Shown here one piece after another: positions 19,063 to 36,639 of a stretch of 64,000 nt of DNA. Source of the DNA: an uncultured delta proteobacterium (lineage in GTDB: Bacteria > Desulfobacterota > WTBG01 > CAIYCZ01); assembly GCA_963803975.1 (NCBI GenBank), contig CAWDOY010000003.1, positions 128,001 through 192,000 of the forward strand. The letters are read 5' to 3'. The position numbers and the translations under genes were made by a program. Position 1 is the stretch's first letter. Every line of letters begins with the position of its first letter. Below the pieces are notes generated by a model, which was not told where the DNA came from, made no database searches, and saw only the letters and a list, made by a program, of their open reading frames with translations.

Positions 19063-20627
19063 GGGGGTGTTGAAAAAGTCTCCGTGAGAAATGATTATAT
19101 GATATGCTGCAGAGCAAAATCAAACATAATCATGGAGACATTATGATAGGCAAGCAGGACCGTTGGCAGCGGCACTTATTTATCGCAGGAGACATCGATC
19201 AGTTCATTCCTGAAGATCACATACTGCGGCGGGTAGATAGAATCCTTGATTTGAGCTGGTTGCGAGAAGAAGTGCGGGGGAGTTACTGTGAAGAAAACGG
19301 ACGGCCAGGGATAGACCCGGAAGCAGCAGTACGGCTGATGCTGGCCGGGTTTTTTCATGGGGTAGTGCATGATCGGAAGTTAATGAGAGAGGCACAGGTA
19401 AATCTGGCGCTCCGATGGTTTGCGGGATACAGTCTGGAAGATAAATTGCCGGATCATTCGAGCCTGAGCCGGATACGGCAGCGCTGGGGGGAAGAGCGGT
19501 TTAAGAAGATATTTCAGAGGACGGTACAGAGCTGTATAGCAAAGGGGTTGGTGAGCGGAGAAACAGTGCATATCGATGCGACCTTGATACGAGCGGACGT
19601 GTCGTGGGAGAGCATAACCGAGAGACACGCAGAGCAGGTGGTGGCAGAGAACAATACCGAGGAGGACAACCGGGCGGAAGATCCATTGCCACGGGGGCCG
19701 GGACGACCGCGGACAAAGAAGGAGCATCCGAAGAAGGTAAGCAGTACCGACCCGGAGGCAACGCTGGTGACCTCACGGAGGGATTTTCACCTTGAGCCGT
19801 CATACAAACAGCACACGGCAGTCGATGACAAGGAAGGGGTAATCGTAGATATTGAGATAACGACTGGAGAAGCGAATGAGGGCCAACGGTTACTTGAGAC
19901 GGTAGAACGAATTGAGCAGACAACCGGGAAGAAGCTGGGCCGGGTAACGGCAGACAAGAGCTACGCACATGCACGGAATTATGAGGGGTTAGAGAAACGA
20001 GGGATAGATGGCATCATACCGCCGGAGCGGGAGCGGGTGAAGGAGAAGCGGATACCGATCAGGCGGTTCAAATATGACGGCAAGCATCAACGGGTACGGT
20101 GTCCTGGAGGTAAAAGTCTGGAGCGGGCAAACCGTACGAAGAATGGGTGGTTCTACCGCGCACGGAAGAGTGATTGTAGCGCTTGTCCACTACAGAAACG
20201 CTGTATCCCTGAGACAGCGAAGGCACGGGTGATACTCATTGTAGACGGCTATGAGGCACTGTTGCGAGCGCGCAGGAGAAAGAACCGTGGCTGGGATACA
20301 GATACGCAACGGGTCTATAACCGGCATCGGGTTTATGTTGAAGGAGTGCATGGTGAGGGTAAAACGCAGCATGGCTTGCGGCGGGCAGTACGTCGCGGAT
20401 TAGCAAATGTGGCGATTCAAGTGTATTTGATAGCGGCAGTAATCAATCTGAAGCGGCTGGCCAAGGCCTTAAGCCCCCGACCAGATGATGGAGACTGGTA
20501 TTTAATTATTCGTAACAGGTTAGGAGCTGTTATTAAACAGTTTTTTGGTGATTGGGTAGAAAAACTGTATAGCGCTTTGTTTTGTGCTGCATGACAATAC
20601 TTATAGAGGGGGTTTTTCAACACCCCC
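19063..20627 (+). mobile_element. IS1182-family insertion sequence, apparently intact
   Basis: 15-bp perfect terminal inverted repeats GGGGGTGTTGAAAAA (19063-19077) and TTTTTCAACACCCCC (20613-20627); 5-bp direct repeat GCTGT at 19058-19062 and 20628-20632. Confidence 0.9.
19104..20594 (+). CDS. IS1182-family DDE transposase
   Basis: IPEDHILR, GRPGIDPE, LPDHSSLSRIR, HIDATLI, STDPEA, ADKSY, CP.G / C..CP...RC and YNRHRVYVEGVHGE.K. Confidence 0.92.
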   Translation: MLQSKIKHNHGDIMIGKQDRWQRHLFIAGDIDQFIPEDHILRRVDRILDLSWLREEVRGSYCEENGRPGIDPEAAVRLMLAGFFHGVVHDRKLMREAQVNLALRWFAGYSLEDKLPDHSSLSRIRQRWGEERFKKIFQRTVQSCIAKGLVSGETVHIDATLIRADVSWESITERHAEQVVAENNTEEDNRAEDPLPRGPGRPRTKKEHPKKVSSTDPEATLVTSRRDFHLEPSYKQHTAVDDKEGVIVDIEITTGEANEGQRLLETVERIEQTTGKKLGRVTADKSYAHARNYEGLEKRGIDGIIPPERERVKEKRIPIRRFKYDGKHQRVRCPGGKSLERANRTKNGWFYRARKSDCSACPLQKRCIPETAKARVILIVDGYEALLRARRRKNRGWDTDTQRVYNRHRVYVEGVHGEGKTQHGLRRAVRRGLANVAIQVYLIAAVINLKRLAKALSPRPDDGDWYLIIRNRLGAVIKQFFGDWVEKLYSALFCAA

Positions 20628-20639
20628 GCTGTCCCCACA

Positions 20640-21059
20640 TAAGGCGGATTTCCTGAAGATTTCATGTTTGTGCTATCCAGCGAAGAAGCTAAAAACTTGA
20701 GGTCACAAATTGTGACCTCAAGTTTACCCCATTGGGGTGGTTCCCGCTATCTGCCTATGGCCTTTACTGAACAGAGCGTTGCAATGTTGTCCAGTGTACT
20801 TAAAAGTGATCGAGCTATAGAGGTTAACATCCAGATTATGAGGGTGTTCACCAGGCTTAGACAAATACTCTTGGGCAATAAAGATCTAAGGCGGGAACTT
20901 GAAGAATTAAAGCGGGTTACTGATGATAGGTTTCGTGTCGTTTTCGAGACACTGGACCAGTTGTTAAGTAATGATGAAAGGCCCAAACGAAAAATCGGGT
21001 TCGAGGTGAAGGAAAGGGCGGCAAGATACCGGGTAAACAGAAAGAAAACTGTGAACTAA
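20640..21059 (+). pseudogene. ORF6N domain protein, 5'-truncated (copy 2)
   Basis: FPEDFMFVLS..EAKNLRSQIVTSS, PMAFTEQSVAMLSSVLKSDRAIEVNIQIMRVF and KRKIGF. Confidence 0.75.
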
Positions 21060-21100
21060 ACATAAAGTTAAGATAACGGGCGCTGTTCCCATTACCCATT

Positions 21101-21180
21101 GGTCACGAGACCCGAGTCACGAGCCACGATTCAGCTGACTGCTGTAGTCTATTTTGCACGATTCACAGGTCACGGGTCAC
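21101..21180. repeat. Degenerate 7-mer repeats (xGTCACG)
   Basis: ggtcacg agacccg agtcacg agccacg ... attcaca ggtcacg ggtcac. Confidence 0.5.
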
Positions 21181-21224
21181 TTGCTTGCGAGCCCCGTCCC
21201 TAACCCCTAGTTAGAGAGAGCATT

Positions 21225-21785
21225 ATGATGAAAAAGACACTACGCATACTGTTTTTCATCCTTATCGTGCTGGGTGGTGTTGGATTTTATTTCACGCCAT
21301 ATATATCCTTTCACAACATGAGACTAACGGCTGAGAATCGCGATGCAGTGACATTGACAGATTATATTGACTATCCGTCGCTCAAGGAAAGCTTGAAAGT
21401 AAATTTACATGCCCGGATGTCAGGTGAGGCTCAGGGCAAACAGGATAAAGACCCGTTTGAGAAAGTGGGTGAAGCTATTGTTTCAGCTTTTATCAATCCG
21501 GTGGTTGATGCATTTGTCACGCCTGAAAGCCTGAGTATGATGATGCGGGGCTATATACCGCCAGTCAATAAATCAGATCGCACGTCAGAAAAGAAATCAG
21601 AAAATGCTTCAAAAAAGAAAACCTCACATGATGATTCGGATATCGAAACCACAATGTATTATGAGAGCTTTAATCGCTTTGTGGTGAAGGTGAAGAATAA
21701 AGATTCTGCTGAAGATCCGGTCGAACTTATATTCAGGCGGGATGGGGTTATTTACTGGAAACTATCTGCCATAAAGCTGCCTTAG
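21225..21785 (+). CDS. DUF2939-like membrane-anchored protein
   Basis: N-terminal transmembrane helix, TPY, YIDYPSLKESLK, VDAFVTPE and WKLSAIKLP. Confidence 0.7.
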   Translation: MMKKTLRILFFILIVLGGVGFYFTPYISFHNMRLTAENRDAVTLTDYIDYPSLKESLKVNLHARMSGEAQGKQDKDPFEKVGEAIVSAFINPVVDAFVTPESLSMMMRGYIPPVNKSDRTSEKKSENASKKKTSHDDSDIETTMYYESFNRFVVKVKNKDSAEDPVELIFRRDGVIYWKLSAIKLP

Positions 21786-21888
21786 TAAAAGAAGCAGCCA
21801 TGAGGGTGCGGCAATACTTTTAAGAGAAGAGGATTAAAATAACGTGCTCTATTATTGGCTTCTTCAAGGTAAAAAAGGGGAATGATTG

Positions 21889-22484
21889 ATGAAAGATAAA
21901 CTATCCAGATATGAGCCAGAAGATATTGAAAGAAGAATTTATACTATTCGCGGTCAAAGAGTGATTATGGATTGCGATCTTGCAACATTATACGTCATTC
22001 CGACCTTTAGATTTATGAAGCGGTAAAGCGCAACCAAAAACGTTTCCCTGATGATTTTATGTTTCAATTAACTGCTCCGGAATATGCAGTTTTGACATCG
22101 CAAATTGCGATGTCAAAACCTGGCAGGGGAGGACGAAGAACCCTTCCGTATGTCTTTACCGAACATGGTGCCATCATGGCGGCGAATGTGCTCAATAGCC
22201 CGAAAGCAATAGAGATGAGTGTTTTTGTCGTCCGTGCATTCATTAAGATGCGTGAAACTCTTGCTAATAATAAAGCACCGGCGTTAGAATTGTCAGAGCT
22301 TGAAAAGAAACTTACCGGGCGGCTTAATGTCCATGAAAGAGCCATTGTGCATGTTTTGGCCGAGATAAGAAAGTTAATGGCTTCAGCAGAGCCGTCACCT
22401 GAACCGACAAAACAAAAAATAGGATTTACGGTAAAGGAGAAGGCGGCAAGATACCAGATAACAAGAAAGAAAACTGTAAACTAA
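21889..22484 (+). CDS. ORF6N domain protein, copy 3 (frameshift near 22015)
   Basis: Manual translation MKDKLSRYEPEDIERRIYTIRGQRVIMD joins ORF 22059..22484; one A is missing relative to copy 1 (tttatgaag vs tttaatgaag). Confidence 0.78.
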
Positions 22485-22509
22485 ACATAAAGATAATAAA
22501 CAGGATTCT

Positions 22510-23970
22510 ATGTTTGAACAAGCCTTCAAAAACATCGACGACGTCCTCTGGAAAGAGGCCGGCTGCACCACCGAGCTGGACTACACCGAGCAGACCTCCT
22601 GGCTGCTGTTCCTGAAATACCTCGACGGGCTGGAGCAGGACAAGGCCGATGGAGGCCGCGCTGGAGGGGAAGAAGTACACCTACATCCTCGACAAGCCCT
22701 ACCGCTGGGAAAGCTGGGCCGCGCCCAAGGGCAAGGACGGCAAGCTCGACCACAACAAGGCCCTGACCGGCGACGACCTGCGCGACTTCGTCAATCAGAA
22801 GCTCTTTCCCTACCTGCACGGCTTCAAGCAGAAGGCCAGCGGGCCGAACACCATCGAATACAAGATCGGGGAGATCTTCGGCGAGATCAAAAACAAGATC
22901 CACAGCGGCTACAACCTGCGCGAGATCATCGACCACATCGACGAACTGCGCTTCCGCTCGCAGACCGAGAAGCACGAGCTCTCGCACCTCTACGAAGCCA
23001 AGATCAAGAACATGGGCAACGCCGGGCGCAACGGCGGCGAGTATTACACCCCGCGCCCGCTCATCCGCGCCATCGTGCAGGTGGTCAAGCCCAAGATCGG
23101 CGAGCGCATCTACGACGGCGCGGTCGGCTCGGCGGGCTTCTTGTGCGAAGCGTTCGACTACCTGAAGAGCCAAGCCCAAGCTGCACCACCGCCAGGACCT
23201 GAAGACGCTGCAGGAGCGCACCTTCTACGGCAAGGAAAAGAAGTCGCTCGCCTACGTCATCGCGATCATGAACATGATCCTGCACGGCATCGAGGCGCCG
23301 AACATCATCCACACCAACACGCTCACCGAGAACCTCGCCGACATTCAGGAGAAGGACCGCTATCGACGTGGTGCTGGCCAATCCGCCCTTCGGCGGCAAG
23401 GAGCGCAAGGAGGTCCAGCAGAACTTCCCCATCCGCACCGGCGAGACCGCCTTCCTGTTCCTCCAGCACTTCATCAAGATGCTCAAGGCCGGCGGGCGCG
23501 GCGGCGTGGTCATCAAGAACACCTTCCTCTCCAACACCGACAACGCCTCGGTGAGCCTGCGCAAGCTGCTGCTGGAAAGCTGCAACCTGCACACCGTGCT
23601 CGACTGCCCCGGCGGCACGTTCCAGGGCGCGGGCGTGAAGACCGTGGTGCTGTTCTTCGAGAAGGGCGCGCCGACCCGCAAGGTCTGGTACTACCAGCTC
23701 GACCCCGGCCGCAACCTGGGCAAGACCAACCCGCTCAACGATGACGACCTCGCCGAGTTCGTCGAACTGCAAAAGACCTTCGCCGACTCGCCCAAGAGCT
23801 GGAGCGTGGACGCCAAGAGCATCGACCAGACGACCTTCGATCTCTCCGTGAAGAACCCCAACGGCGGCGAGGAAGTCACCCACCGCAGCCCGCAGGAGAT
23901 CATGGACGAGATCGCCGCGCTGGATGCCGAGAGTGCGGAGGTGCTGGCGAACATCAGGGCGCTGCTATGA
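22510..23970 (+). CDS. hsdM: Type I restriction-modification methyltransferase subunit (about 3 frameshifts)
   Basis: GEYYTPR, YDGAVGSAGFL, MNMILHG, LANPPFGG and FLQHF, spread over four ORFs. Confidence 0.9.
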
Positions 23971-25216
23971 AGAACGGGTGGCAAACGAAGAACGCTTGGG
24001 CGACGTCTGCGAGTCATCGACTACGGGCAAGCACGCCAGCAAAGACAATCGACCGTTCTGACGGCAATCACTGACGAATGTGATATCTGCGGTCATTACA
24101 GACTGTAACCGATGAAAGTTCGTTGACAGACCGAGACATGTCGATATGGTCAGCGATGCTCGAGCAATTCCAGAAGGGTGACGTTCTGTTTGCGACATCA
24201 CTGAGTCACGTCGGGCAAGGTCGCGCATTGCATACTGACGAGCGAGTTGCTATCGGCACGACGATGCGCATTGTCTGCATCCGACCAATGACGCAAGCTA
24301 TTGACTCGAGATTCTTGCTTTACTATCTGCTTCTATCGACTAGTTCAAGAGCATGTTCGAGCAGCAGATGGAGTCAGGCGCGACCGTCAAGCGTAATCAA
24401 AGTCGAGCTTCAAGAGCATTCAGATTCCCATTCCCCCGCTCCCCGAACAGCAGCGGATCGTCGGCATCCTCGACGAAGCGTTTGACGGCATCGCCACCGC
24501 CAAAGCCAACGCCGAAAAGAACCTCCAAAACGCCCGCGCCCTCTTCGAAAGCCACCTCCAATCCGTCTTCACCCAGCGCGGCGAGGGGTGGGTGGAGAAG
24601 ACGCTTGGAGAATCTGTCGAATGATCAACGGCGACAGCGGAAGCACTATCCGACCGAGAGAATACGTCGAGACGGCATTCCTGTTGTGAACACCGGACAA
24701 ACGTTCGATGCACGATGGTACTTGTCGCAGACGATATATGAGTTACATTCGACCAAGGATGCTACGAATCCACGAAGACGTGCAAATTCAGCAGGCGGCG
24801 ACGTCTGATTGTTGCATCGACGGCGCAACCGCTGGAAGAGCGGCATTGCGATTGTCCGACACCGCAGCGAGCTTACGACATCTGCTTGATCAGCGTCGAT
24901 CTCAGTTACAGCAAGCAGTCGCGACATAGTCGCTTCGCTTTATCTGCTATGCTTCAAGTCCGAGGATCTTTCAGGCAGACATCACGTTGATGACAGTTCT
25001 GGCAGCTGCACAACAGCTCAACTTGAGACTAAAGCTGTTGAGACTCTTCGATGCCATCTCCTGAATCGACCGAACAAGCAAGTCAGTATCTCGAAAGCTC
25101 GATGACCTCGTCAGACCGAAACCCAACGCCTCGAATCCATCTACCAGCAGAAGCTCGCCGCACTGGAGGAGTTGAAAAAATCGCTGCTGCACCAAGCCTT
25201 CAGCGGCCAACTTTAG
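23967..25216 (+). pseudogene. hsdS: Type I specificity subunit; conserved repeats readable, target-recognition domains scrambled
   Basis: IPIPPLPEQQRIVGILDEAFDGIATAKANAEKNLQNARALFESHL (about 24424-24560) and YQQKLAALEELKKSLLHQAFSGQL*; overlaps the hsdM stop (ATGA). Confidence 0.8.
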
Positions 25217-25225
25217 GAATACGCC

Positions 25226-27641
25226 ATGAACGAAGCCGAAACCCGAGCCGAACATATCGACCCTGCGCTGAAAGCGGCGGGCTGGGGCGTGGTTGAAGGC
25301 AGCCGCATCCGGCGCGAGTATCCGATCACGCTGGGCCGCATCGAAGGCCACGGCAAGCGCGGCAAGGCGCTGACCGCCGATTATGTGCTGGAGTACCGCA
25401 ACACCAAGCTGGCGGTGGTCGAGGCCAAGGCGTGGGACAAACCGCTGACCGAAGGCGTGGGGCAGGCCAAGGACTACGCCGGCAAGCTGGCCATCCGCTT
25501 CACCTATGCCACCAACGGCCAGGGCATCTACGGCATCGACATGGAGACCGGCGCCGAGGGCGAACTGGCGCAGTATCCGACGCCGGATGAACTGTGGAAC
25601 CGGACCTTTGCCACGCAGAACGCCTGGCGCGACCGCTTCGCCGCCGTGCCGTTCGAGGACAAGGGCGGCTACTTCCAGGGCCGCTACTATCAGGACATCG
25701 CCATCGAGCGGGTGCTGGAGGCCATCGCCGACGGACAAGCAGCGCATCCTGCTGACGCTGGCCACCGGCACGGGCAAGACCTTCATCGCCTTCCAGATCG
25801 CCTGGAAGCTGTTCCACAGCCGCTGGAACCTGACCGACTGGAAGACGGAGGGCGAACCAACGCGCCGGCCGCGCATCCTGTTCCTGGCCGACCGCAACAT
25901 TCTGGCCGACCAGGCATACAACGCCTTTTCCGCCTTTCCCGAAGACGCCCTGGTGCGCATCGCCCCGGACGACATCACGCAAGAAGGGCAAGGTGCCGAA
26001 GAACGGCAGCATCTTCTTCACCATCTTCCAGACCTTCATGAGCGGGCCGCCCAAGGATGGCCAGCCATCGCCCTATTTCGGCGAGTATCCGCCGGACTTC
26101 TTCGACTTCATCGTCATCGACGAGTGCCACCGCGGCGGCGCCAACGACGAGAGCAACTGGCGCGGCATCCTGGACTACTTCGCCCCTGCCGTGCAGCTCG
26201 GCCTGACCGCCACGCCCAAGCGCAAGGACAACGTGGACACCTACGCCTATTTCGGCGAGCCGGTCTACATCTACTCGCTGAAGGACGGCATCAACGACGG
26301 CTTTCTCACGCCGTTCCGGGTGAAGCAGATTTCCACGACGCTGGACGAGTACGTCTATACGCCCGACGACACGGTGGTCGAGGGCGAGATCGAGGCGGGC
26401 AAGCGGTACGAGGAACCCGACTTCAACAAGATCATCGAGATCAAGGAGCGGGAGAAGAAGCGGGTCGAAATCTTCATGTCGCAGATCGACCAGCGGGAGA
26501 AGACGCTGGTCTTCTGCGCCACCCAGGACCATGCGCTGGCGGTGCGCGACCTCATCAACCAGATGAAGACCAGCACCGACCCGAACTACTGCCAGCGGGT
26601 GACGGCCAACGACGGCGCGCTGGGCGAACAGCACCTGCGGGACTTCCAGGACAACGAGAAGACCATCCCGACCATCCTGACCACCTCGCAGAAGCTCTCG
26701 ACCGGCGTGGATGCCCGCAATATCCGCAACATCGTGCTGATGCGCCCGATCAACTCGATGATCGAGTTCAAGCAGATCATCGGGCGCGGCACACGGCTCT
26801 ACGACGGCAAGGACTACTTCACGATCTACGATTTCGTGAAGGCGCACCATCATTTCAGCGATCCGGAGTGGGATGGCGAGCCGCTTGAGCCGGAAACTGT
26901 CCAAAATGCGGCTGCTATCCCTGCCAATGCGAAAAGCCACCGCCGAAACCTTGTCCGGTCTGCGGCAAGCAGCCTTGCGAATGCGTCGAAAGAACCGTGC
27001 CCGAACTGCGGCAAGCGTCCGTGCGTGTGCAAGAAGAAAGCGAAGGTGAAGCTCGCCGACGGCAAGGAACGCACCATCCAGCACATGATGGTGACGAGCT
27101 TCTGGCACCCCGACGGCACGCCGATGTCGGCGCAGCAGTTCATGGAAGTGCTCTTCGGCAAGCTGCCGGAGTTCTTCAAGGACGAAGAGGAACTGCGCGC
27201 CCTCTGGAGCGCGCCGGATACGCGCAAGAAGCTGCTGGAGGGACTGGCCGAAAAGGGCTTCGGCAAAGATCAACTGGCCGAGATGCAGAAGATCATCGAC
27301 GCCGAGAAGAGCGACCTGTTCGACGTGCTGGCCCATGTGGCCTATGCCCTGCCGCCGCTCACCCGTGAGGAACGGGCCGCAAAGGCCAAGGTCATCATCA
27401 GCACAGCATTTCAACAGCAAGCAGCAGGTCTTCCTCGACTTCGTGCTGTCGCATTACGTGAGCGTCGGCGTGGAGGAACTCGACCAGGACAAAGCTGACA
27501 CCGCTGCTGCGGCTCAAGTATCACGACTCCATTGCCGATGCCGTGGCCGACCTGGGCAAGCCGGAGGAGATTGGCAAGGTGTTCGCCGGCTTCCAGAAGT
27601 ACCTCTATCAGCAGCAAGCGGCAGTAACGCAAGAAAAATAA
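25226..27641 (+). CDS. hsdR: Type I restriction subunit R (EcoAI/EcoEI-like), several frameshifts
   Basis: [12 protein letters not shown]...EAK, QAKDYA, ATGTGKT, DECHRG, GLTATP, STGVD and [10 protein letters not shown]. Confidence 0.9.
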
Positions 27642-27704
27642 GTTAAATACGGGCTAACAAGGCACCGTACACACAGGGCAACAGATACTATTCGTGGAGT
27701 ATAC

Positions 27705-28772
27705 ATGGTGAGTGATAAACTGCTGAAAAAAACAATTTCGGCACAGGGCGAAGTTTTACTCTATCAGACCGAAGACGGCGCAACTCGAATTGAAGTACGA
27801 ATGGAGGGTGAAACCGTCTGGATGACGCAGGGAACCATGGCGGAACTGTATCAGAACCACGCCGCAAAATATCACGCTTCATTTAAAAGCCATTTATGAG
27901 GAGGGCGAACTGGAGGAAGGAGCAACTTGTAAGGAATTCTTACAAGTTCAAAATGAAGGGGCGCGGAAGGTGACCCGGTCACGAAAATTCTACAGTCTGC
28001 CTGCTATTCTTGCAGTCGGCTATCGTGTGCGCTCACACCGGGGAACACAGTTCCGGCAATGGGCAACTGAACGGCTTACTGAATATCTCGTCAAGGGCTT
28101 TAACCTTGATGACGAGCGATTTAAAAGAGCTGGCGGCGGCGGATATTTCGATGAGCTGCTCGCCCGCATCCGCGACATACGCTCATCAGAGAAGGTTTTC
28201 TGGCGCAAGGTGCTTGATATTTACGCCACGAGCATTGACTATGACTCTCCACGGAAATGTCACAGAAATTCTTTGCCACAGTGCAGAACAAAATGCACTG
28301 GGCTGCCCACGGCCACACCGCAGCGGAGGTAATCGCCGCGCGTGTCGATTCTGAAAAACCCAGCATGGGACTCACCAGCTGGACTGGCGCTCATCCCAAC
28401 AAAGATGATGTGAGCATTGCGAAGAACTATCTCGACGAAAAGGAACTCGATGCGCTCAATCGCATTGTGACACTGTATTTGGAATTTGCAGAACTTCAGG
28501 CATTGAACCGTAAACCCATGTATATGGGCGAATGGATCGCCAAGCTCGACGAATTTCTACGAATAAGTGAGCGCGATATTCTTACTCATGCAGGCAAGGT
28601 GAGCCATGAGAACGCTCTACTGAAAGCTGAAACTGAATATCAGAAGTTCGAGCAGAAGCGTCTGGCTGAACCGACACAGGCGGAGAAGGATTTTGAGGAA
28701 GCCGTGAAGAAACTGAGGAAGCTGAAAGCACCCAGCAGGGGAGCAAAAAAGCCAAAAGGAAAGATGTCATGA
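27705..28772 (+). CDS. RhuM-family protein (two frameshifts)
   Basis: LLYQTEDG, AVGYRVRSHRGTQFRQWAT, RIRDIRSSEKVF, FFATVQNKMHWA and AKNYL. Confidence 0.85.
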
Positions 28773-28894: not shown

Positions 28895-30137
28895 ATGCCT
28901 TTAAAATCCTACGAGCACTGCTGTTCTTCCTGTATTGCTCTTGCTAATCTCGGAAAGATTGAGGGAGTGATACCCATCCTCCATGGACCGCAGGCCTGCG
29001 CCTTCGGCAATCAGATCGGCTCCATGTTCTGCCGGCCATCCCGGTTGCTGACCATTGGCACCACACTTAAAAAGAGTGAAGTTATTTTTGGCGGTGAAGA
29101 TAAGCTCAAAGAACAGATTGTTAATGTCTATAAACAATACAAGCCCAAAATTATCGTGATTATTAACACCTGTGTTCCGCAGCTCATAGGCGAAGATTTA
29201 AAGGGAGTAATCATCGAGCTGAAGGAAGAACTGCCGGAGCTGAAGGTGACCTATTGTGAGACCGGATTCAATCAGCCAAAATCTACCCCACTGGGCAATG
29301 ACGTATCATGGCGGGCGATTATTGACGTGCTGGAGCCCAGGGATATGATCAAGGGCTCAGTGGGAATACTGGGGAGGGCAGGGCAGGATGCGGACAGCAT
29401 GGGCTGTCTTGACGTCTCTGTTGCGGGAAGCGGGTATTACCACGTTTGCTTTTCCTGCCGGGCACCTTGAAGAAATGGAGAAGATTGTCCAGGCTGAGTA
29501 TCTGTTCCCCATTCATTTAGTCCCCTATCTGACCAGCAAACGGATTAATGAACGGTTTGGCTCAAAGACTGTTTATATTGAACTGCCGGTGGGGATTGCC
29601 GGGACTACCAATTTTCTACGCGGAGTTGCCGACCTGACAGGCAGCATTAAACTTAAAGAAATTGCAGACCGTGAAGAAAAAAGATCATTGCCGCGATTAG
29701 AGAAAATAAGGGAGCAATTCAGACAGAAGCCAACAAAGGTTCTGTTAGTATCCGGGCCTGCCAATGAAACATCAATTGGGAAAATACTGGCTGAATTCGG
29801 AGCAGAAGTGATTATTGTGCCATCCATGCGCAATGCCTTTGCCCGCCAGGAGCAGGACATTTTGCAAAAGCGCTATGGCTCCCGCATTATCTTCCATGAA
29901 AATGACTTTAACAAAGTTTCAGACCTTGTAGGTTTATATAAGCCGGATGTTGTGTTTGGTGATTTCCAGGCACGCGTTGAGGTTATACGAAACCTTATCC
30001 CCTGTCTCATCAACGAGAACTATTTGAATGAATACGGCTATGATTATGCCCTGGACTTTGGTGAAAACTTTTTTGAGAACTTGAAGCAGCCATTTTTTAC
30101 CGAGTGGAAGGATATTATGCGTCAATACGCAGGATAG
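28895..30137 (+). CDS. Nitrogenase component-1 family, BchN/BchY-like subunit, pair 1 (frameshift near 29402)
   Basis: HCCSS, LHGPQAC, EVIFGGEDKL and INTCVPQLIGED give a three-Cys cluster pattern (C10/C35/C93); PVGIAGTTNFL in the second ORF. Confidence 0.85.
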
Positions 30138-30207
30138 AATCTGGAACTCAGGAACTCATAAATTACAGCCTAATCAAATTAATCTGGAACTCAGGAACTG
30201 CATAAAT
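30138..30207 (+). repeat. 26-bp direct repeat x2 in the spacer between the N and B genes of pair 1
   Basis: aatctggaactcaggaactcataaat (30138-30163) and aatctggaactcaggaactgcataaat (30181-30207). Confidence 0.75.
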
Positions 30208-30255
30208 ATGATTTTTAAACCCTGTGCACGATCGTAGTTTTGTATTGGAGATAGC

Positions 30256-31987
30256 ATGTCTGCAACTGACAGAAGAGATTTTATTGCTCCAGAAATAAAG
30301 ATGAAGGAGATTCATAAGCCATCTTCTTTTGAAGGCGCTTTATGGGCCGCGCAGGGGATAACAGATGCCCGGGTGATTTATCATGCACCTCCCGGCTGCT
30401 ATCTTATGCAGCACATGAACTCCATCTGCAATGAATGGCATCCTGAGATGTACAGCACGCTCATATCATACGCTGAAGTTATGCAGGGCACCGGGAAAAA
30501 GCTGGAGGAGGTGCTGGAAAAGGTTGTCGCTGAAAAGCCGCAGGCAATTATTATAATAACCTCACCGGTGATTGAGATTACCGGCGATGACGTTCAGGGT
30601 GCAGTCGCGGCTGCAGGATTCGAGAAGACGGTAATAATAAGACCAACCCTGGGCGGCACACTCGCTGATGGAAAGGAAAAGGCATTTATCGCTCTGACCG
30701 GACTGATGAAGACAGACGAAGAGAAGCGGAAAAAGTCCGTCAATTTAATAGGGCCGACCTATAATACGTTCAACTGGCGGGCGGATGTATTTGAACTTAA
30801 AAGAATGCTCTCTGCCATCGGTATCTGCGTCAACGCTGTTTTAACAGCTGACTGCACGGTTGATGAAATTATACATGCACCCCGGGCTGAACTAAATATA
30901 TGCATGTATCCCTATGATTGCGGGATAGAATTTGCCAAGAAAATGCAGGAGCAGTTCAGCATACCGTATATTGCAAGCCATATTCCCCTTGGCTTCCGAG
31001 AATCAGCTGCATGGCTTGATGAAATTGCCCGGTTCTTTCTGATTGATGCAAAGCAGTATATTGCACAGGAAATAAAAAGTGCCCGGGACTTTGTCACAAC
31101 GCTTTTGGTAACCAACACCTTCTTTGAAGCAACGGCTGCCCTCTCAACTGACAACTGTGATACCTACAGCGTCGGGATAAGCAGTTTTCTGAAAAGAGAA
31201 CTCGGCATGGATGTTTGCATGGCGTCGGTAGCAACTGATGAGGCATTGGAAAAAGTGTCCCAGGTTTGCTCTACGGTACTATTAAATCCAAGCATTGATG
31301 AGAAAAAGTCGGTAATGCTGGAGAAATCCCCGACCATTATTCTCGGGAATTACTATGACCTCAAGCTTGCAACTGACCTGGGATTCAAGAACTTCCTGTT
31401 TGCGGATATCCCGCTTATCGGATACATCTTTTCAGAAACTACTCCATTCATGGGCTTCATGGGTGCTAAGCATCTGGTGCAGGCCATGGGCAATGAGATT
31501 TATACCAAGATATTTATTGAGACCAAGGGGGAAATGGAAGGCGCCATATCAGCAGGGGAGGTGCCGTGGGAACTCGATGCGGAGCGGGCGCTGGGAAGGA
31601 TTGCTGAGATGCTCCCTCATTTTATACGTTCAATCGCGCTGAAGAAAATTCATCAAGTGGCAGATGAGACAGCCGTGCAAAAAAAATCTTCGGTCACGCT
31701 GGGGATCCTGCAGGAGGTCGCCACAAAATATACCCCGACGAGGTTTAAGTCAAAATATGCCACCATCTTTACGGATATAAAAGATACCCCGCTTGTTCCA
31801 GATGGCGCTGAGCAGACCGTGTTTCAGATGGAGTGGGATCAGGGCTGCTAAAGAGATGCTTGAGATGGTGCCCGATGAGTTCGTGGCAAAGGCGGTGAGG
31901 GAAACAGAAGGCTATGCCCGCGAGAACAATTATGGTCAAATAACTACAGCGGTTGTCGAGGAATACCGGAAGAAGCTCGGCTTTTGA
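30256..31987 (+). CDS. Nitrogenase component-1 family, BchB/BchZ-like subunit with two C-terminal PCP_red-like domains, pair 1 (frameshift near 31843)
   Basis: HAPPGCY, EITGDD, VNLIGPT..FNWRADVFELKRML, PLGF and PFMGFMGA; WELDAERAL...PHFIR and MEWD..AKEMLEMVP...ETEGYARENNYGQIT. Confidence 0.85.
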
Positions 31988-32000
31988 TTAATTGAAATAA

Positions 32001-32874
32001 CTATTCTTCGTCAAACCGCTTATCCCTCAGACTGTCTACAAACTGCGGGGTAATGACAGAAATTCCCTTTTCTTTTGCTGCATCAACAACCACTTCTATC
32101 ATTCCATTCAAAAAGATAGCGGGCACTTTCAAAAGCCGTGCGCAGGCATCTTCCTGCCATGTGATGTTCGGGTCAAATCGGGAACAGGCATACTTAACGG
32201 TTGCCATGGTGTTGCCTTTTCCCCGCGGGATCGGGATAGCATAGGGCGGTGAGTGCCTGGCAAACCAGAACCGTACATTATCCCGGTATCCATAATCAAC
32301 GGGCAGGGCAGGGAACCCCTGTCCCTTGAATAAACAATCCCGCCATTTTTTCTGCATGATGATTTTGTCAATGCGCAGCAGAAAGTGGTATTCCATGCGC
32401 TCTTTATTATGCTGCAGCGTAAAACTCTCATCCCAGCTGCACAAAAAGACCTGAACCGCCTCTTTCACAATATCAGGATGCGTCGCGCAAACCTGGCGGT
32501 TGCGCGGCTTGCCATACGGGGTTGCCGGCAGCAGGGTAAAGATGCTTCTTTTCATTTTCTCCTCAGTGGTCTCACCGGGATAACCAAGCATAACGCAGTT
32601 CTTCATATATTTCTTCGTGTCAGGAATATAATTAAGGGAGCAAACTTTCGTGCGTATGATGTTAGCGGCGGTATTGCTGCTGCCGCGTGCGATAAGCATC
32701 ATGGCGTGCTGCTGGTCTCCCGCGATAATATGGGGAAAGCAGAGTGAATACGGTCCCAGGTTGATCATCCCGGACTCTGAATAAGGTGCTCACCAGTATC
32801 ACCGGCATCGGAATAAAACTCGACGTCTGATAAAAGTTATCTACAATTCGTATTTCGGTAAAATCCTGAGACAT
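32001..32874 (-). CDS. Flavin-reductase-like (FMN split-barrel) protein fused to a C-terminal PCP_red-like domain (frameshift near 32775)
   Basis: IPMPVILVST...NLGPYSLC...SNTAANI; C-terminal WQEDACARLLKVPAIFL...AKEKGISVIT. Confidence 0.65.
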
Positions 32875-32937: not shown

Positions 32938-32974
32938 AGCCCTTTAATTTCAAGAAAAATGAAATTAAAGGGCT
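32938..32974. promoter_or_regulatory. 15-bp perfect inverted repeat in a divergent promoter region
   Basis: agccctttaatttca-agaaaaa-tgaaattaaagggct. Confidence 0.5.
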
Positions 32975-33011
32975 GATAAATATATCTTGACTCGAAAGTT
33001 GCTTGTGATAA

Positions 33012-33025
33012 TAGTTTGGAAACTA
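33012..33025. promoter_or_regulatory. Candidate MarR operator palindrome
   Basis: TAGTTT-GG-AAACTA, downstream of TTGACT (32987) and upstream of marR. Confidence 0.45.
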
Positions 33026-33101
33026 AATATAAGGTATCAAATTAAACAGCATGTGGCAACATAATTATTACAGCTGATAATCGGCTGACCATTTACCGGA
33101 T

Positions 33102-33602
33102 ATGAAGACAGGAAAGAAAATAATGAAAAATAAAAATGAAAACATTAATTTAAAGGAAATTGAGGAGTTCGGAGATCATCTGCGCAATTGGAGAAATTTT
33201 TTCACTGAGTTTTTTAATAACGTAATAAAAGACAGCGGCAAAATATCAGGCTTTGATTTCAGTATGTCACAGTTTAAGACCATGGGGGCCTTTCGGGAAG
33301 ATACGGTCTATACCATGGGCGAGTTAAGTAAAAATGCTTCTGTTACCATGCCGACCATGACTGAAATGATTGATAATCTGGAGCGGGAAGGAATTGCCGA
33401 GCGGATAAGGGATTCTCAGGATCGGAGGGTAGTAAAGGTACGTTTAACTGCAAAAGGAAAAAAGCTGCGCAAGAAATTCATGGATAAACGAAGGAATGAA
33501 CTTAAAAACATACTCAGCAATCTGAGTAAAGAAGACCGGGGTGAGCTTATGAATGCGCTTGCCAAAGCGTACAGCGTACTGAAGAAAAACAGCACGGTAT
33601 AA
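33102..33602 (+). CDS. MarR family transcriptional regulator
   Basis: TMGELS...TMTEMIDNLEREG..ER.RD..DRRVVKVRLT.KG winged-helix signature. Confidence 0.92.
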   Translation: MKTGKKIMKNKNENINLKEIEEFGDHLRNWRNFFTEFFNNVIKDSGKISGFDFSMSQFKTMGAFREDTVYTMGELSKNASVTMPTMTEMIDNLEREGIAERIRDSQDRRVVKVRLTAKGKKLRKKFMDKRRNELKNILSNLSKEDRGELMNALAKAYSVLKKNSTV

Positions 33603-33637: not shown

Positions 33638-34883
33638 ATGCTTAAAAGCTATGAGCACTGCTGTTCTTCAATGCAGGCTTTGGCAACACTGGGGAAGGTG
33701 GAGGGAATCATTCCTTTGCTGCATGGACCGCAGCCATGCGCCTATCAGATTCAGATAGGAACCATGACCTGCCGTCCATCACGCCTTCTTACCGCTGGTA
33801 CTTTGATTAAGAAATCAGAGGTGGTCTTCGGCGGCGAAGAAAATTTAAAAAATCAAATAATCAATATGTACCGCCAGTATAAGCCAAAAATAATCGTAAT
33901 CATCAATACGTGTCTTCCCCAGCTCATCGGCGAGGATATAAAAGGGGTAATCAGTGAAATAGAACTGGAACTGCCTGATTTAAAAGTGACCTATATTGAC
34001 AGTGGATTCAATTTCCCTAAATGTATGCCTCTGGGAAACGATGTGGCGTGGGTATCGATCGTGAGACTGCTTGAAATAAAAGAGAAGGTAAAGGGATCAA
34101 TTGGTCTGGTTGGAAGGTCAGGGCAGGATGCCGGAGCTTTTACATCATTTGACACGTTTTTAAAGCGGGCAGGGATTACGGTATTCCCGTTTCCCGCTCC
34201 GCATCTGAATGAAATGGAAAAAATTGCATGTGCAGAAATTATATTCCCAGTCCATGTAGTACCGTTCCTGACCTGCAAAGAGATGAGCGAACGCTTCGGG
34301 TCAAGGGTAGAATATATTGAAATTCCTGCAGGTGTGCAGGGCACTACAAATTTCCTGCGGGGGGTTGCTGATATCCTGAAAAACCAGAAGCTGCATGATC
34401 TGGTGGATACAGCAGGAGCAGGAAATGCGGCCCCGCATAGAAGCTATAAAAGAGCGCTTTGCCAAAAACCCGATTAAAGTGATGTTTGCATTCGGGCCGG
34501 CAAGTGAGTTCGGGCTGAGCAAGATTATGGCTGACTTCGGAGCTGAGGTCATAATGATTCCTTCAATGAAAAATAAGTTCGCACAGCAGGAGAAAGAGCT
34601 GCAGAAGAAGCGATACAACGTGACTATTATTGAGGAAGATTTTGATACCCTGGAGGATCTCTATGATCAGTACCGGCCGGATGCAGTGTTTTGTGAAACG
34701 CAGGGCCGGGTAGAACTTACCTCGCGGCTTATTCCAACATTTTGCAACATGACTTATTTAACTGCTTACGGATATGACTTTGCTCTGGATATGGGGGAAA
34801 AGTTCCATGAGAGTATGAAGCTCGATGTATTATCATCCTGGAGAGATGTGGTTCAGAGATACGGAGGCGATCTCAATGCGTAG
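33638..34883 (+). CDS. BchN/BchY-like nitrogenase-fold subunit, pair 2 (frameshift near 34408)
   Basis: Paralog of 28895: YEHCCSS, LHGPQPC and INTCLPQLIGED; AAGGAGAGG ribosome-binding site. Confidence 0.85.
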
Positions 34884-36639
34884 TACTGAAGGCAAGGCAA
34901 TGAAGCAGCTGGAACTGGCAGGCGCCCGCGAGCTGAAGATGAAGGAGATTCATAAGCCTTCAGCGTTTGAGGGGGCTTTGTGGACGGCTCTCGGTATAAA
35001 AGATGCGCGGGTTATTTACCACGCACCTCCCGGCTGCTACATCAGTCAGCATATGGATGCGCTGATGCATGAGTATCCGTTTGAATTATATACGACGTCA
35101 CTTTCATATGCCAATGTTATGCAGGGTGCAGAGAACCAGCTCGAAGCAGTGTTGAGAAAAACCCTGGCACGAAAACCAAAACCGAAACTGGTAATCATTG
35201 TTACTTCTCCCAGTGTTGAAATAACCGGCGATGATGTGGAGGGGGTTGTAGAAAAAGTCGGAGATAAAAACTGTGTCGTAATAAGGCCCCCGATTGGCGG
35301 AAGCCTGCACGAGGGAAGGGAAAAGGCGTTAATAAGTCTGATAGACATAATGGTTCCAGCTGTTGAAAAGATTGCTAAAACAGTTAATTTTATTGGTCCG
35401 ACTTTTGATACCTTTAACTGGAGAGCTGACGCATTTGAGCTAAAAAGAATGCTTTCACGTATCGGCATCAAGGTTAATGCGGTACTGACCGGTGGATCAC
35501 GAGTGAATGAAATTATTAACGCACCACGTGCTTTATTAAACCTCTGCTTGTATCCCTATGACTGCGGTATTGAGACGGCGCAGATCATGGAGAAGAAATT
35601 CGGCATTCCGTATCTTGCCGGCCATGTACCAATTGGTTTTAAAGAATCTGCTGTCTGGCTTGAAGAAATTGCTGGCTTTTTCAAGGTGGACGCACGGGAA
35701 TATCTTAAAGAAGAGACCGAAATGATATTTGAACTAATCCAGTCCTTTATGGTGCTGCCTATTACGTTTGAATGCTCTGCTGCTCTGTCGCTGGATAATA
35801 ACGATACCTATGCAGTGGGCATAAGTCAATTTCTGAAAAAGGAATTGGGAATGGAGCTCTCCATGGTGGCTGTAGGCAGTGATGCTGCAGGGGAAAAAGT
35901 AAAAGAAGTCTGCAGTAATGTTCTGGTAGAACCTACCATTGATGAAAAGAAGGAGCAGTTTATCGAAAAGGGCCCGATGATGATTATGGGCAACTTTTAT
36001 GATTTAAAGATAGCCAAAGAACTTGGTTTTAATAACTTCCTCTTCGCTGATATTCCAACGCTGGGATACATTGCCACAGAGGCAAGCCCCTACATGGGTT
36101 TCCAGGGGGCAAGGAATTTGATTCAGCAGACGGGCAATCAGATTTATATCAATTTTCTCATTGAGACCAAGGGCGGCATGGAAGAAGCCATCTCTTTGGG
36201 AGAAATTCCCTGGGACCTTGATGCACGGGAAGCGTTTGTAAAAGTCGCAGCCGTAATTCCGCATTTTATTAAAGCTACCGCCATGAGAAAGCTGCAGAAA
36301 AAAGCAGAAGAGCTTGCAGTTAAAAATGGCACGGGAATTACTATGGATATAATTAGAACGGTAACAGAACAGTACACGCCAACCAGGTTTAAATCAAAAT
36401 TTTTATCTGCATTGCAGGGCGGTCAAGACGGAGAGCAACAGGGGGAATTTTCTGCAGAACTAACATTTACCATGGAATGGGATGCACCAGCCAGGGAATT
36501 GATGGAAAAGATTCCGCAGGAAGTTAAAACAATGGCAGTTGCAGGTACTGAGGAATTTGCAAGAGAGAAAGGCTACAAAAAAATAACAGTCGGCGTAGTG
36601 AATGAGTTCAAAGAAGAGGCCGGCATGGGGAAAAATTAA
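34876..36639 (+). CDS. BchB/BchZ-like nitrogenase-fold subunit with two PCP_red-like domains, pair 2 (intact)
   Basis: HAPPGCY and FNWRADAFELKRML; WDLDAREAF...PHFIK and MEWDAPARELMEKIP...TEEFAREKGYKKIT; ATG at 34876 follows GGAGG and overlaps the upstream stop. Confidence 0.87.
   Translation: MRSTEGKAMKQLELAGARELKMKEIHKPSAFEGALWTALGIKDARVIYHAPPGCYISQHMDALMHEYPFELYTTSLSYANVMQGAENQLEAVLRKTLARKPKPKLVIIVTSPSVEITGDDVEGVVEKVGDKNCVVIRPPIGGSLHEGREKALISLIDIMVPAVEKIAKTVNFIGPTFDTFNWRADAFELKRMLSRIGIKVNAVLTGGSRVNEIINAPRALLNLCLYPYDCGIETAQIMEKKFGIPYLAGHVPIGFKESAVWLEEIAGFFKVDAREYLKEETEMIFELIQSFMVLPITFECSAALSLDNNDTYAVGISQFLKKELGMELSMVAVGSDAAGEKVKEVCSNVLVEPTIDEKKEQFIEKGPMMIMGNFYDLKIAKELGFNNFLFADIPTLGYIATEASPYMGFQGARNLIQQTGNQIYINFLIETKGGMEEAISLGEIPWDLDAREAFVKVAAVIPHFIKATAMRKLQKKAEELAVKNGTGITMDIIRTVTEQYTPTRFKSKFLSALQGGQDGEQQGEFSAELTFTMEWDAPARELMEKIPQEVKTMAVAGTEEFAREKGYKKITVGVVNEFKEEAGMGKN

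Follow-up and report, generated by a model that had tools for sequence, protein, structure and literature searches.

Flavoredoxins (2D5M from Desulfovibrio, 3BNK from Methanosarcina) and MTH152-type proteins (1EJE) are described counterparts of a 290-residue protein encoded in a 64,000-nucleotide stretch of an uncultured delta proteobacterium (lineage Bacteria; Desulfobacterota; WTBG01; CAIYCZ01; contig CAWDOY010000003.1, positions 128,001 to 192,000), hereafter the window. The protein joins a flavin-type split barrel to a C-terminal PCP_red domain. It is only 12-16% identical to flavoredoxins and MTH152, to which it adds a conserved N-terminal NFYQ helix, a GYRD...FWF strand and the 70-residue PCP_red tail, and it differs from them in gene context. 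The nitroreductase NbaA (4Z85), which acts on 2-nitrobenzoate, is 16% identical, lacks the tail and lies in an unrelated context. The superfamily is common to the gene product, the RutF/HpaC/DIM6-NTAB flavin reductases (PF01613) and the haem-binding HugZ/HutZ/HOZ barrels. PMC11602992 defines these three haem-binding types and gives HugZ and HOZ a DRI domain fused to the barrel; split-barrel functions are surveyed in PMC12204192.

The PCP_red domain is found in BchB/ChlB (2KRU, 2XDQ) and as the stand-alone protein Asr4154 (2L09); we know of no function for its Pfam family, PF08369. The tail differs from these in being fused to a flavin barrel, in an additional N-terminal helix and in lacking the arginine of P-x-F-x-R, which we take to be the PCP_red pattern, and it persists in genomes without nitrogenase-like proteins. 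Its fold also resembles the AAA+ lid and detached relatives of that lid, with RuvBL (2XSZ) and the N-terminal domains of Pol alpha p68 (2KEB) and PolD DP1 (2KXE) as examples. Among enzymes with nitrogenase-like N and B subunits, DPOR and COR are described in PMC13474568, according to which many nitrogenase-like systems remain uncharacterised.

An original prediction, made from the letters of the DNA, had read the gene as a flavin-reductase-like protein with its own PCP_red domain and as a partner of two adjoining N/B pairs, docking through that domain. We find that the domain assignment was right and that the gene belongs to a large, uncharacterised flavoredoxin-like family with a PCP_red tail. 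Dedicated partnership with N/B reductases is not supported, and the bilin-reductase-like neighbourhoods counted here suggest a different setting.

An intact gene broken in the assembly

The gene and its parts are as follows.

32874..32001, minus strand: flavoredoxin-like split-barrel::PCP_red gene, 290 aa, with an assembly-error frameshift at about 32785
32244..32874, minus strand: split-barrel domain, about residues 1-210, from fold and conserved residues
Within the split barrel: flavin-site residues N38, P41-Y42-S43 and R63-x-x-S66-N67-T68-x-x-N71
Within the split barrel: family-specific residues N13-F-Y-Q16, K106, C145 and G195-x-R197...W203
32004..32219, minus strand: four-helix tail, residues 219-290, an extra helix plus PCP_red with an AAA+-lid-like fold
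32028-32159, minus strand: Pfam match to PCP_red (PF08369)

In the contig, the gene is split into open reading frames (ORFs) of 70 and 255 residues in different frames. The intact homologue P0001 (290 residues) matches it at 97% identity over residues 1-31 and at 95% over residues 31-290, with the frame change near 32783. Because base 32785 is missing from the contigs of all three DNA runs, each from a different study (the RNA run gave no cover there), the frameshift is an assembly error, and the natural gene is unbroken. Single-base assembly errors likewise account for the breaks at 29411, 31843/31846 and 34409, in N1, B1 and N2. Single-base frameshifts are common throughout the window, and those tested proved to be errors of this kind. 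Contigs from the RNA run that cover the gene were considered as a sign of transcription and set aside, as contigs cannot show it.

Structure of the split-barrel domain

All three N-terminal motifs named in the original prediction (PMPVILVST, NLGPYS and SNTAANI) occur in the gene, and the protein has the split-barrel fold. The top ten hits in the VIA comparison are all FMN- or flavoredoxin-type barrels, led by 3E4V (17.8), 3HMZ (17.5), NbaA 4Z85 (17.2) and 1EJE (17.1), with the flavoredoxins 3BNK and 2D5M at 16.8 and 16.5. In a profile match to 1EJE (E 1.4e-5), N38, P-Y-S and S-N-T-x-x-N line up with N, P-F-S and H-H-T-x-x-N, residues that presumably hold the FMN phosphate. The flavoredoxin/MTH152 motifs N...P-[FY]-S and R-x-x-S/H-x-T-x-x-N are thus present, by alignment and by conservation: in the broad alignment, Y42, S66, N67 and T68 are invariant and R63 occurs in 20 of 21 sequences. 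Beyond the flavin motif, N13, Y15, Q16, K106, C145, G195, R197, P251, F254 and R286 are near-invariant across archaea, bacteria and the gut branch.

Sequence searches see this kinship faintly. PF01613 (gathering score 27) matches neither the window ORF nor P0001 and gives the paralogue 20.2 bits; at E<=0.05, 78 of 88 family members match it. An NCBIfam search with the protein returned no match, and a single-sequence phmmer search of the PDB found nothing.

The motifs also bear on whether the protein might be a flavin-free binder of haem or a tetrapyrrole of the HugZ/HutZ/HOZ kind, as the original prediction had allowed. The common superfamily and a neighbourhood rich in tetrapyrrole-type genes would suit such a role; against it, the fold groups with flavoredoxin-type barrels, the flavin motif of that type never varies, PCP_red stands as the sole second domain in place of DRI, and the broad alignment shows no conserved histidine close to the barrel's C-terminus. 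HugZ and HutZ are also missing from the 50 VIA rows, an absence that speaks weakly and excludes nothing. We regard a flavin-free binder as highly improbable; of that part of the prediction, the flavin-protein domain stands, a tetrapyrrole link is plausible within the clade and the HugZ/HutZ option is disfavoured.

The PCP_red tail

The predicted C-terminal motif, WQEDACARLLKVPAIFL...AAKEKGISVIT, is present, and the tail can be identified as PCP_red although it misses the Pfam gathering score (16.8 bits, E 0.007; cut-off 32.5). In the family, 83 of 88 members match PF08369 at E<=0.05 and one Asgard member reaches the cut-off. A hidden Markov model (HMM) of the tail, run against the genome's 28,107 ORFs, gave six matches at E<0.01, all of them known PCP_red carriers, with the best reversed sequence at E 1.3. 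Its best match outside the family is a B-subunit tail, and the tail of a transporter of the MFS type scores nearly as high. Profile matches of the tail to known PCP_red domains are weak. In Foldseek, the first two matches of the tail's predicted model are NMR structures of PCP_red, 2KRU and 2L09 (weak, with E 0.026-0.027), and it shows their three-helix fold with a small beta-pair. A likeness to ribosomal protein L3 arose from weak profile matches and was discarded, as fold searches do not return L3.

PCP_red recurs elsewhere in the genome, in an MFS transporter, two DUF169 proteins within uptake-type operons and two small ferredoxin/NIR_SIR-type proteins (L004:6445-7473, L005:6196-7170, L006:1075-2052, L004:11625-12242 and L007:6257-6823). 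In these genomes the domain is hence portable and no sign of a DPOR partner, which corrects the call made from the neighbourhood. The tail is AAA+-lid-like and probably serves as a lid or protein-contact surface rather than as a tag for docking to N/B pairs in particular.

Another, separate flavin-reductase::PCP_red family, which shares about 20% identity with the gene, was seen at L003:6667-7491 (G000:C15, in the window's own genome, G000). Both of its domains score above the Pfam cut-offs; full-length relatives occur in about nine genomes of the class, twice beside an MFS transporter gene.

Distribution of nitrogenase-like neighbours

The gene is divergent from marR and stands between two N/B pairs, the layout that had been described.

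28895..31987, plus strand: first nitrogenase-like N/B pair (N1B1), convergent on the gene, PF00148; a neighbour only in the tip clade
33102..33602, plus strand: marR (PF01047, E 2e-8), divergent from the gene
33638..36639, plus strand: second nitrogenase-like N/B pair (N2B2), downstream of marR, PF00148; a neighbour only in the tip clade

The comparison drew on a near family of 586 clusters and took the best 80 of 118 loci from genomes and the best 80 of 241 from metagenomes, a selection biased towards close relatives. Nitrogenase-like neighbours occur at 8 of these 160 loci (4 of the 70 with >=3 kb on both sides), and all eight are 79-96% identical to the query. The six N/B loci that the tree includes group together as a single tip clade (SH-aLRT 99), nested in a clade of 73 rows whose records are mostly labelled Desulfobacterota. 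The tree was built by a quick method with SH-aLRT support only and a midpoint root, from 130 ORF rows out of 161 loci plus 12 proteins; rows L119 and L015b, probably antisense artefacts, distort the root, and a length/overlap filter removed the remaining loci, including the N/B loci L089 and L098.

Co-occurrence gives the same picture. Among 42 genomes of the class, the family is present in 24, a B-like gene in 22 and both in 18. The gene adjoins a B-like gene in three of the 22 B-positive genomes, all from the same taxonomic family as the window's genome, and six carriers have no B-like match, three of them >=93% complete. Outside the class, nine of ten carriers (archaea, Myxococcota, Anaerolineae and Spirochaetota) have no PF00148 match; the tenth has it on another contig region. 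Archaeal, myxobacterial and gut members retain the tail, including aligned members of the lineages that lack PF00148. One family carrier, a Myxococcaceae genome, holds two N/B-type pairs with strong PCP_red tails on a single contig, resembling DPOR and COR (G336:C26).

DPOR-type enzymes receive electrons from an ATP-dependent Fe protein. The window contains no NifH-like gene; two occur on contig C50, with a third N/B pair, and they are most likely the Fe-protein source of the window's pairs. That locus (L002:7406-18285, G000:C50) consists of marR, the two NifH-like genes in tandem, the third pair, hydrolases and an OYE-type gene.

A dedicated partner of DPOR/COR-like N/B pairs, docking by PCP_red, might be argued from the N1B1-gene-marR-N2B2 order, conserved in the tip clade down to 79% identity, from the 18 of 24 carriers in the class that also have a B-like gene and from the B-subunit tail that is the tail HMM's best match outside the family. 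It fails because nitrogenase-like neighbours are confined to eight loci in a single tip clade; encoding with N/B pairs is no property of the family. The near-equal score of the MFS tail, the carriers without B-like or PF00148 matches, the two Fe proteins on C50 and a Fisher p of 0.088 for the association among FDBR-positive genomes all point the same way. Homologues thus occur mostly without nitrogenase-like neighbours, the outcome under which the original prediction was to be given up, and we consider dedicated partnership quite improbable. Given the synteny in the tip clade, the gene and the pairs may still be functionally linked locally.

Bilin-reductase-like and other neighbouring genes

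The genome's own paralogue of the gene, 68% identical, lies on contig C42, adjoining a PF05996 bilin-reductase-like (FDBR-like) gene and a PNPOx-type barrel, behind an MMPL/DUF1302/DUF1329/BNR uptake set. Against a null of random windows from this FDBR-rich genome, an FDBR-like gene was found at 20 of 64 de-duplicated loci of the Desulfobacterota-type clade (2.9 expected), and within 2 kb at 12 of them (1.3 expected). At least one tetrapyrrole-type marker lies within 5 kb at 38 of the 64 loci, the others being an OYE-type reductase (18 loci), a PNPOx barrel (13), an alpha/beta hydrolase (13), a chelatase-like protein (8), a chlorophyllase-like protein (7) and N/B (6). The chelatase-like label, given to a C42-type protein, derives from a 29% tblastn cross-match to the window's ferrochelatase-like gene at one locus, with no Pfam match. 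For all these enrichments, only the direction of the effect is safe.

Several subclades show FDBR adjacency, and the FDBR paralogues differ among them (32-36% versus 66-100% identity to the one on C42). Each of the 24 carrier genomes in the class has 5-19 PF05996 matches, none of the ten class genomes without PF05996 carries the gene, and among 301 sampled genomes of the phylum the gene is found in nine, all of this class. FDBR-like genes are abundant in the class: 32 of the 42 class genomes have 5-19 PF05996 matches each, and the window's genome has 19, with 25 FDBR-like ORF pieces over 14 contigs. According to PMC10151467, FDBR-like proteins occur in non-phototrophs and known enzymes of the fold act downstream of oxygen-dependent steps; its supplementary trees may include relatives of the FDBR-like proteins counted here.

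A full-length chlorophyllase-like gene is present in the genome (G000:C23:37755-38606; PF07224, E 7e-50), with similarly strong matches in five other class genomes. Haem oxygenase and reaction-centre families gave no match in the genome, in searches whose controls were detected; the Staygreen search (PF12638) also gave none, its control matched nowhere and it is uninformative.

We considered the neighbouring OYE as the bilirubin reductase BilR and rejected it: at 386 bits, its top NCBIfam score is short of the cut-off of 750 and ties with mycofactocin OYE and BaiCD, and HGDR, presumably the BilR motif, occurs in 0 of 26 ORFs. The OYE-type reductase most often beside the family (L022:10904-12859 and relatives) has neither the usual active-site histidine pattern that was searched nor the BilR motif, and is an atypical OYE.

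The wider family

When 1.84 billion representatives were searched by profile, a gut and rumen branch emerged, with at least 7,912 clusters among the 8,000 scored. It includes bpr_I2931 of Butyrivibrio proteoclasticus B316 and entries from other Butyrivibrio, Lachnospiraceae, Oscillospiraceae and Treponema. Among the matches listed, 120 of 120 members of the branch retain the tail. Many family members carry automatic names of the RutF/HpaC/DIM6-NTAB flavin reductase type. In gut-branch clusters P0422 (15 members) and P0423, an N-terminal flavodoxin and a 2x[4Fe-4S] ferredoxin are fused to the family protein, which indicates electron transfer.

Domain variants among P0422, P0423, P0123, P0164 and P0194 also include an N-terminal hydrophobic extension and a membrane-like domain in place of the PCP_red tail; P0128, from an MMETSP transcript, has an N-terminal extension. 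Fusions to thrS (P0421) and to an aldehyde dehydrogenase (P0302) are singletons and were dismissed as probable chimeras. Gut-branch loci had no match in viral contigs, plasmids or phages, and among 301 Spirochaetota genomes only the two non-gut members already known matched. The literature searched, with incomplete coverage and supplements excluded, held no description of the family, of the fusion or of FDBR expansions in Desulfobacterota.

Upstream and intergenic sequences

Two candidate regulatory elements lie between the gene and marR.

32987..33041, plus strand: candidate promoter-like element of the marR operon, conserved
33012-33025, inside the promoter-like element: candidate MarR box, the palindrome TAGTT-N4-AACTA

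A genome-wide MarR regulon was sought and rejected: the palindrome has 11 matches with at most one mismatch against 8.8 expected, and a matrix of the tandem site gives a single strong match, the locus itself. A 15-bp hairpin at 32938-32974, between the marR promoter and the gene start, is absent from the short intergenic regions of L010 and L091. Upstream of N1B1, 19104-28772 presumably holds a transposase-like gene and a type I restriction-modification-like block. GC content is 57-58% over 22-28 kb of the window versus about 45% around it, and a similar type I gene lies beyond N1B1 in locus L090.

Discussion

The account we favour, at somewhat short of an even chance, is that of an accessory oxidoreductase that depends on FMN, was recruited into gene clusters for anaerobic tetrapyrrole reduction and uses its tail as a lid or contact module. 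The protein would be a homodimeric FMN-binding oxidoreductase of the flavoredoxin/MTH152 type, acting as an accessory redox component in anaerobes. Its flavin could be reduced by NAD(P)H or by ferredoxin/flavodoxin and could pass electrons to partner reductases or to a small substrate. Within the class, it may have been recruited repeatedly into clusters with bilin-reductase-like, OYE-type, chelatase-like and hydrolase genes and uptake systems and, in one lineage, beside DPOR/COR-like N/B pairs. The tail may serve throughout as a portable AAA+-lid-like module, either a lid or a protein-contact surface.

Several observations weigh against this accessory role. His163, at the putative nicotinamide site, is conserved in only 71 of 88 and 17 of 21 sequences, the protein is below the Pfam cut-offs for both PF01613 and PF08369, and a place in the split-barrel superfamily is, according to PMC11602992, no guarantee of FMN binding. 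The enrichments are overstated, since kin loci are not independent and all markers but FDBR were selected on these very loci; 26 of the 64 clade loci, many of them short contigs, have no marker within 5 kb. Eight of the ten PF05996-negative genomes of the class belong to one taxonomic family. Outside the clade, N/B, chelatase-like and chlorophyllase-like neighbours occur at 0 of 82 loci; PF05996 is found in none of the five archaeal and none of the four other carriers, and archaeal and most other members are orphans in changing contexts, without FDBR.

Such orphans, in Asgard archaea, Bathyarchaeia, Anaerolineae and Myxococcota, would suit a general-purpose flavoprotein of anaerobes, one that might reduce metals, quinones or nitro groups, has nothing to do with tetrapyrroles and lies near genes for them only because its genomes are saturated with such genes, the 25 FDBR-like pieces in this genome being a case in point. 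The null drawn from that same genome still leaves 20 loci observed against 2.9 expected, the adjacency recurs in subclades with different FDBR paralogues, and in the phylum sample the gene is restricted to this class; we judge a general role improbable. Rather less far-fetched, if still unlikely, is a substrate-specific FMN reductase of a tetrapyrrole, bilin or pyrrole catabolite, with the tail as its active-site lid, in sediment bacteria and in gut and rumen Clostridia. The near-invariant residues beyond the flavin motif suggest a defined pocket, FDBR adjacency is enriched, the genome pairs a full-length chlorophyllase-like gene with no match to haem oxygenase or reaction-centre families, and the gut branch is very large. 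The accessory role remains the one we prefer, and with it the family may help to break down chlorophyll- or haem-like molecules without oxygen in sediment bacteria.

Beyond the domain assignment, the analysis adds a negative result for the N/B link and a count of the FDBR association; it also brings out the tail's likeness to AAA+ lids, the fusions to electron carriers and a cultured host. The family is large and conserved, has no curated model (no NCBIfam match) and extends over uncultured sediment bacteria, Asgard archaea and abundant rumen and gut bacteria; the gene offers a simple two-domain system for probing PF08369 function. Gut bacteria make phytoporphyrin from chlorophyll, as stated in PMC3907879 in passages that name no enzymes.

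We speculate, as a rather unlikely extension, that the family provides an enzyme for, and marks, an undescribed oxygen-free pathway of chlorophyll or bilin reduction in sediment Desulfobacterota-type bacteria and in rumen and gut Clostridia. If so, bpr_I2931 of cultured B. proteoclasticus B316 would give a handle on the gut conversion of dietary chlorophyll, for example to phytoporphyrin, and the same gene would inform how pigments change in anoxic sediments; PCP_red would then be an AAA+-lid module that has become detached and now tags or organises pathway enzymes and transporters. Should the tetrapyrrole link reach the gut branch, a cultured host for anaerobic pigment breakdown already exists.
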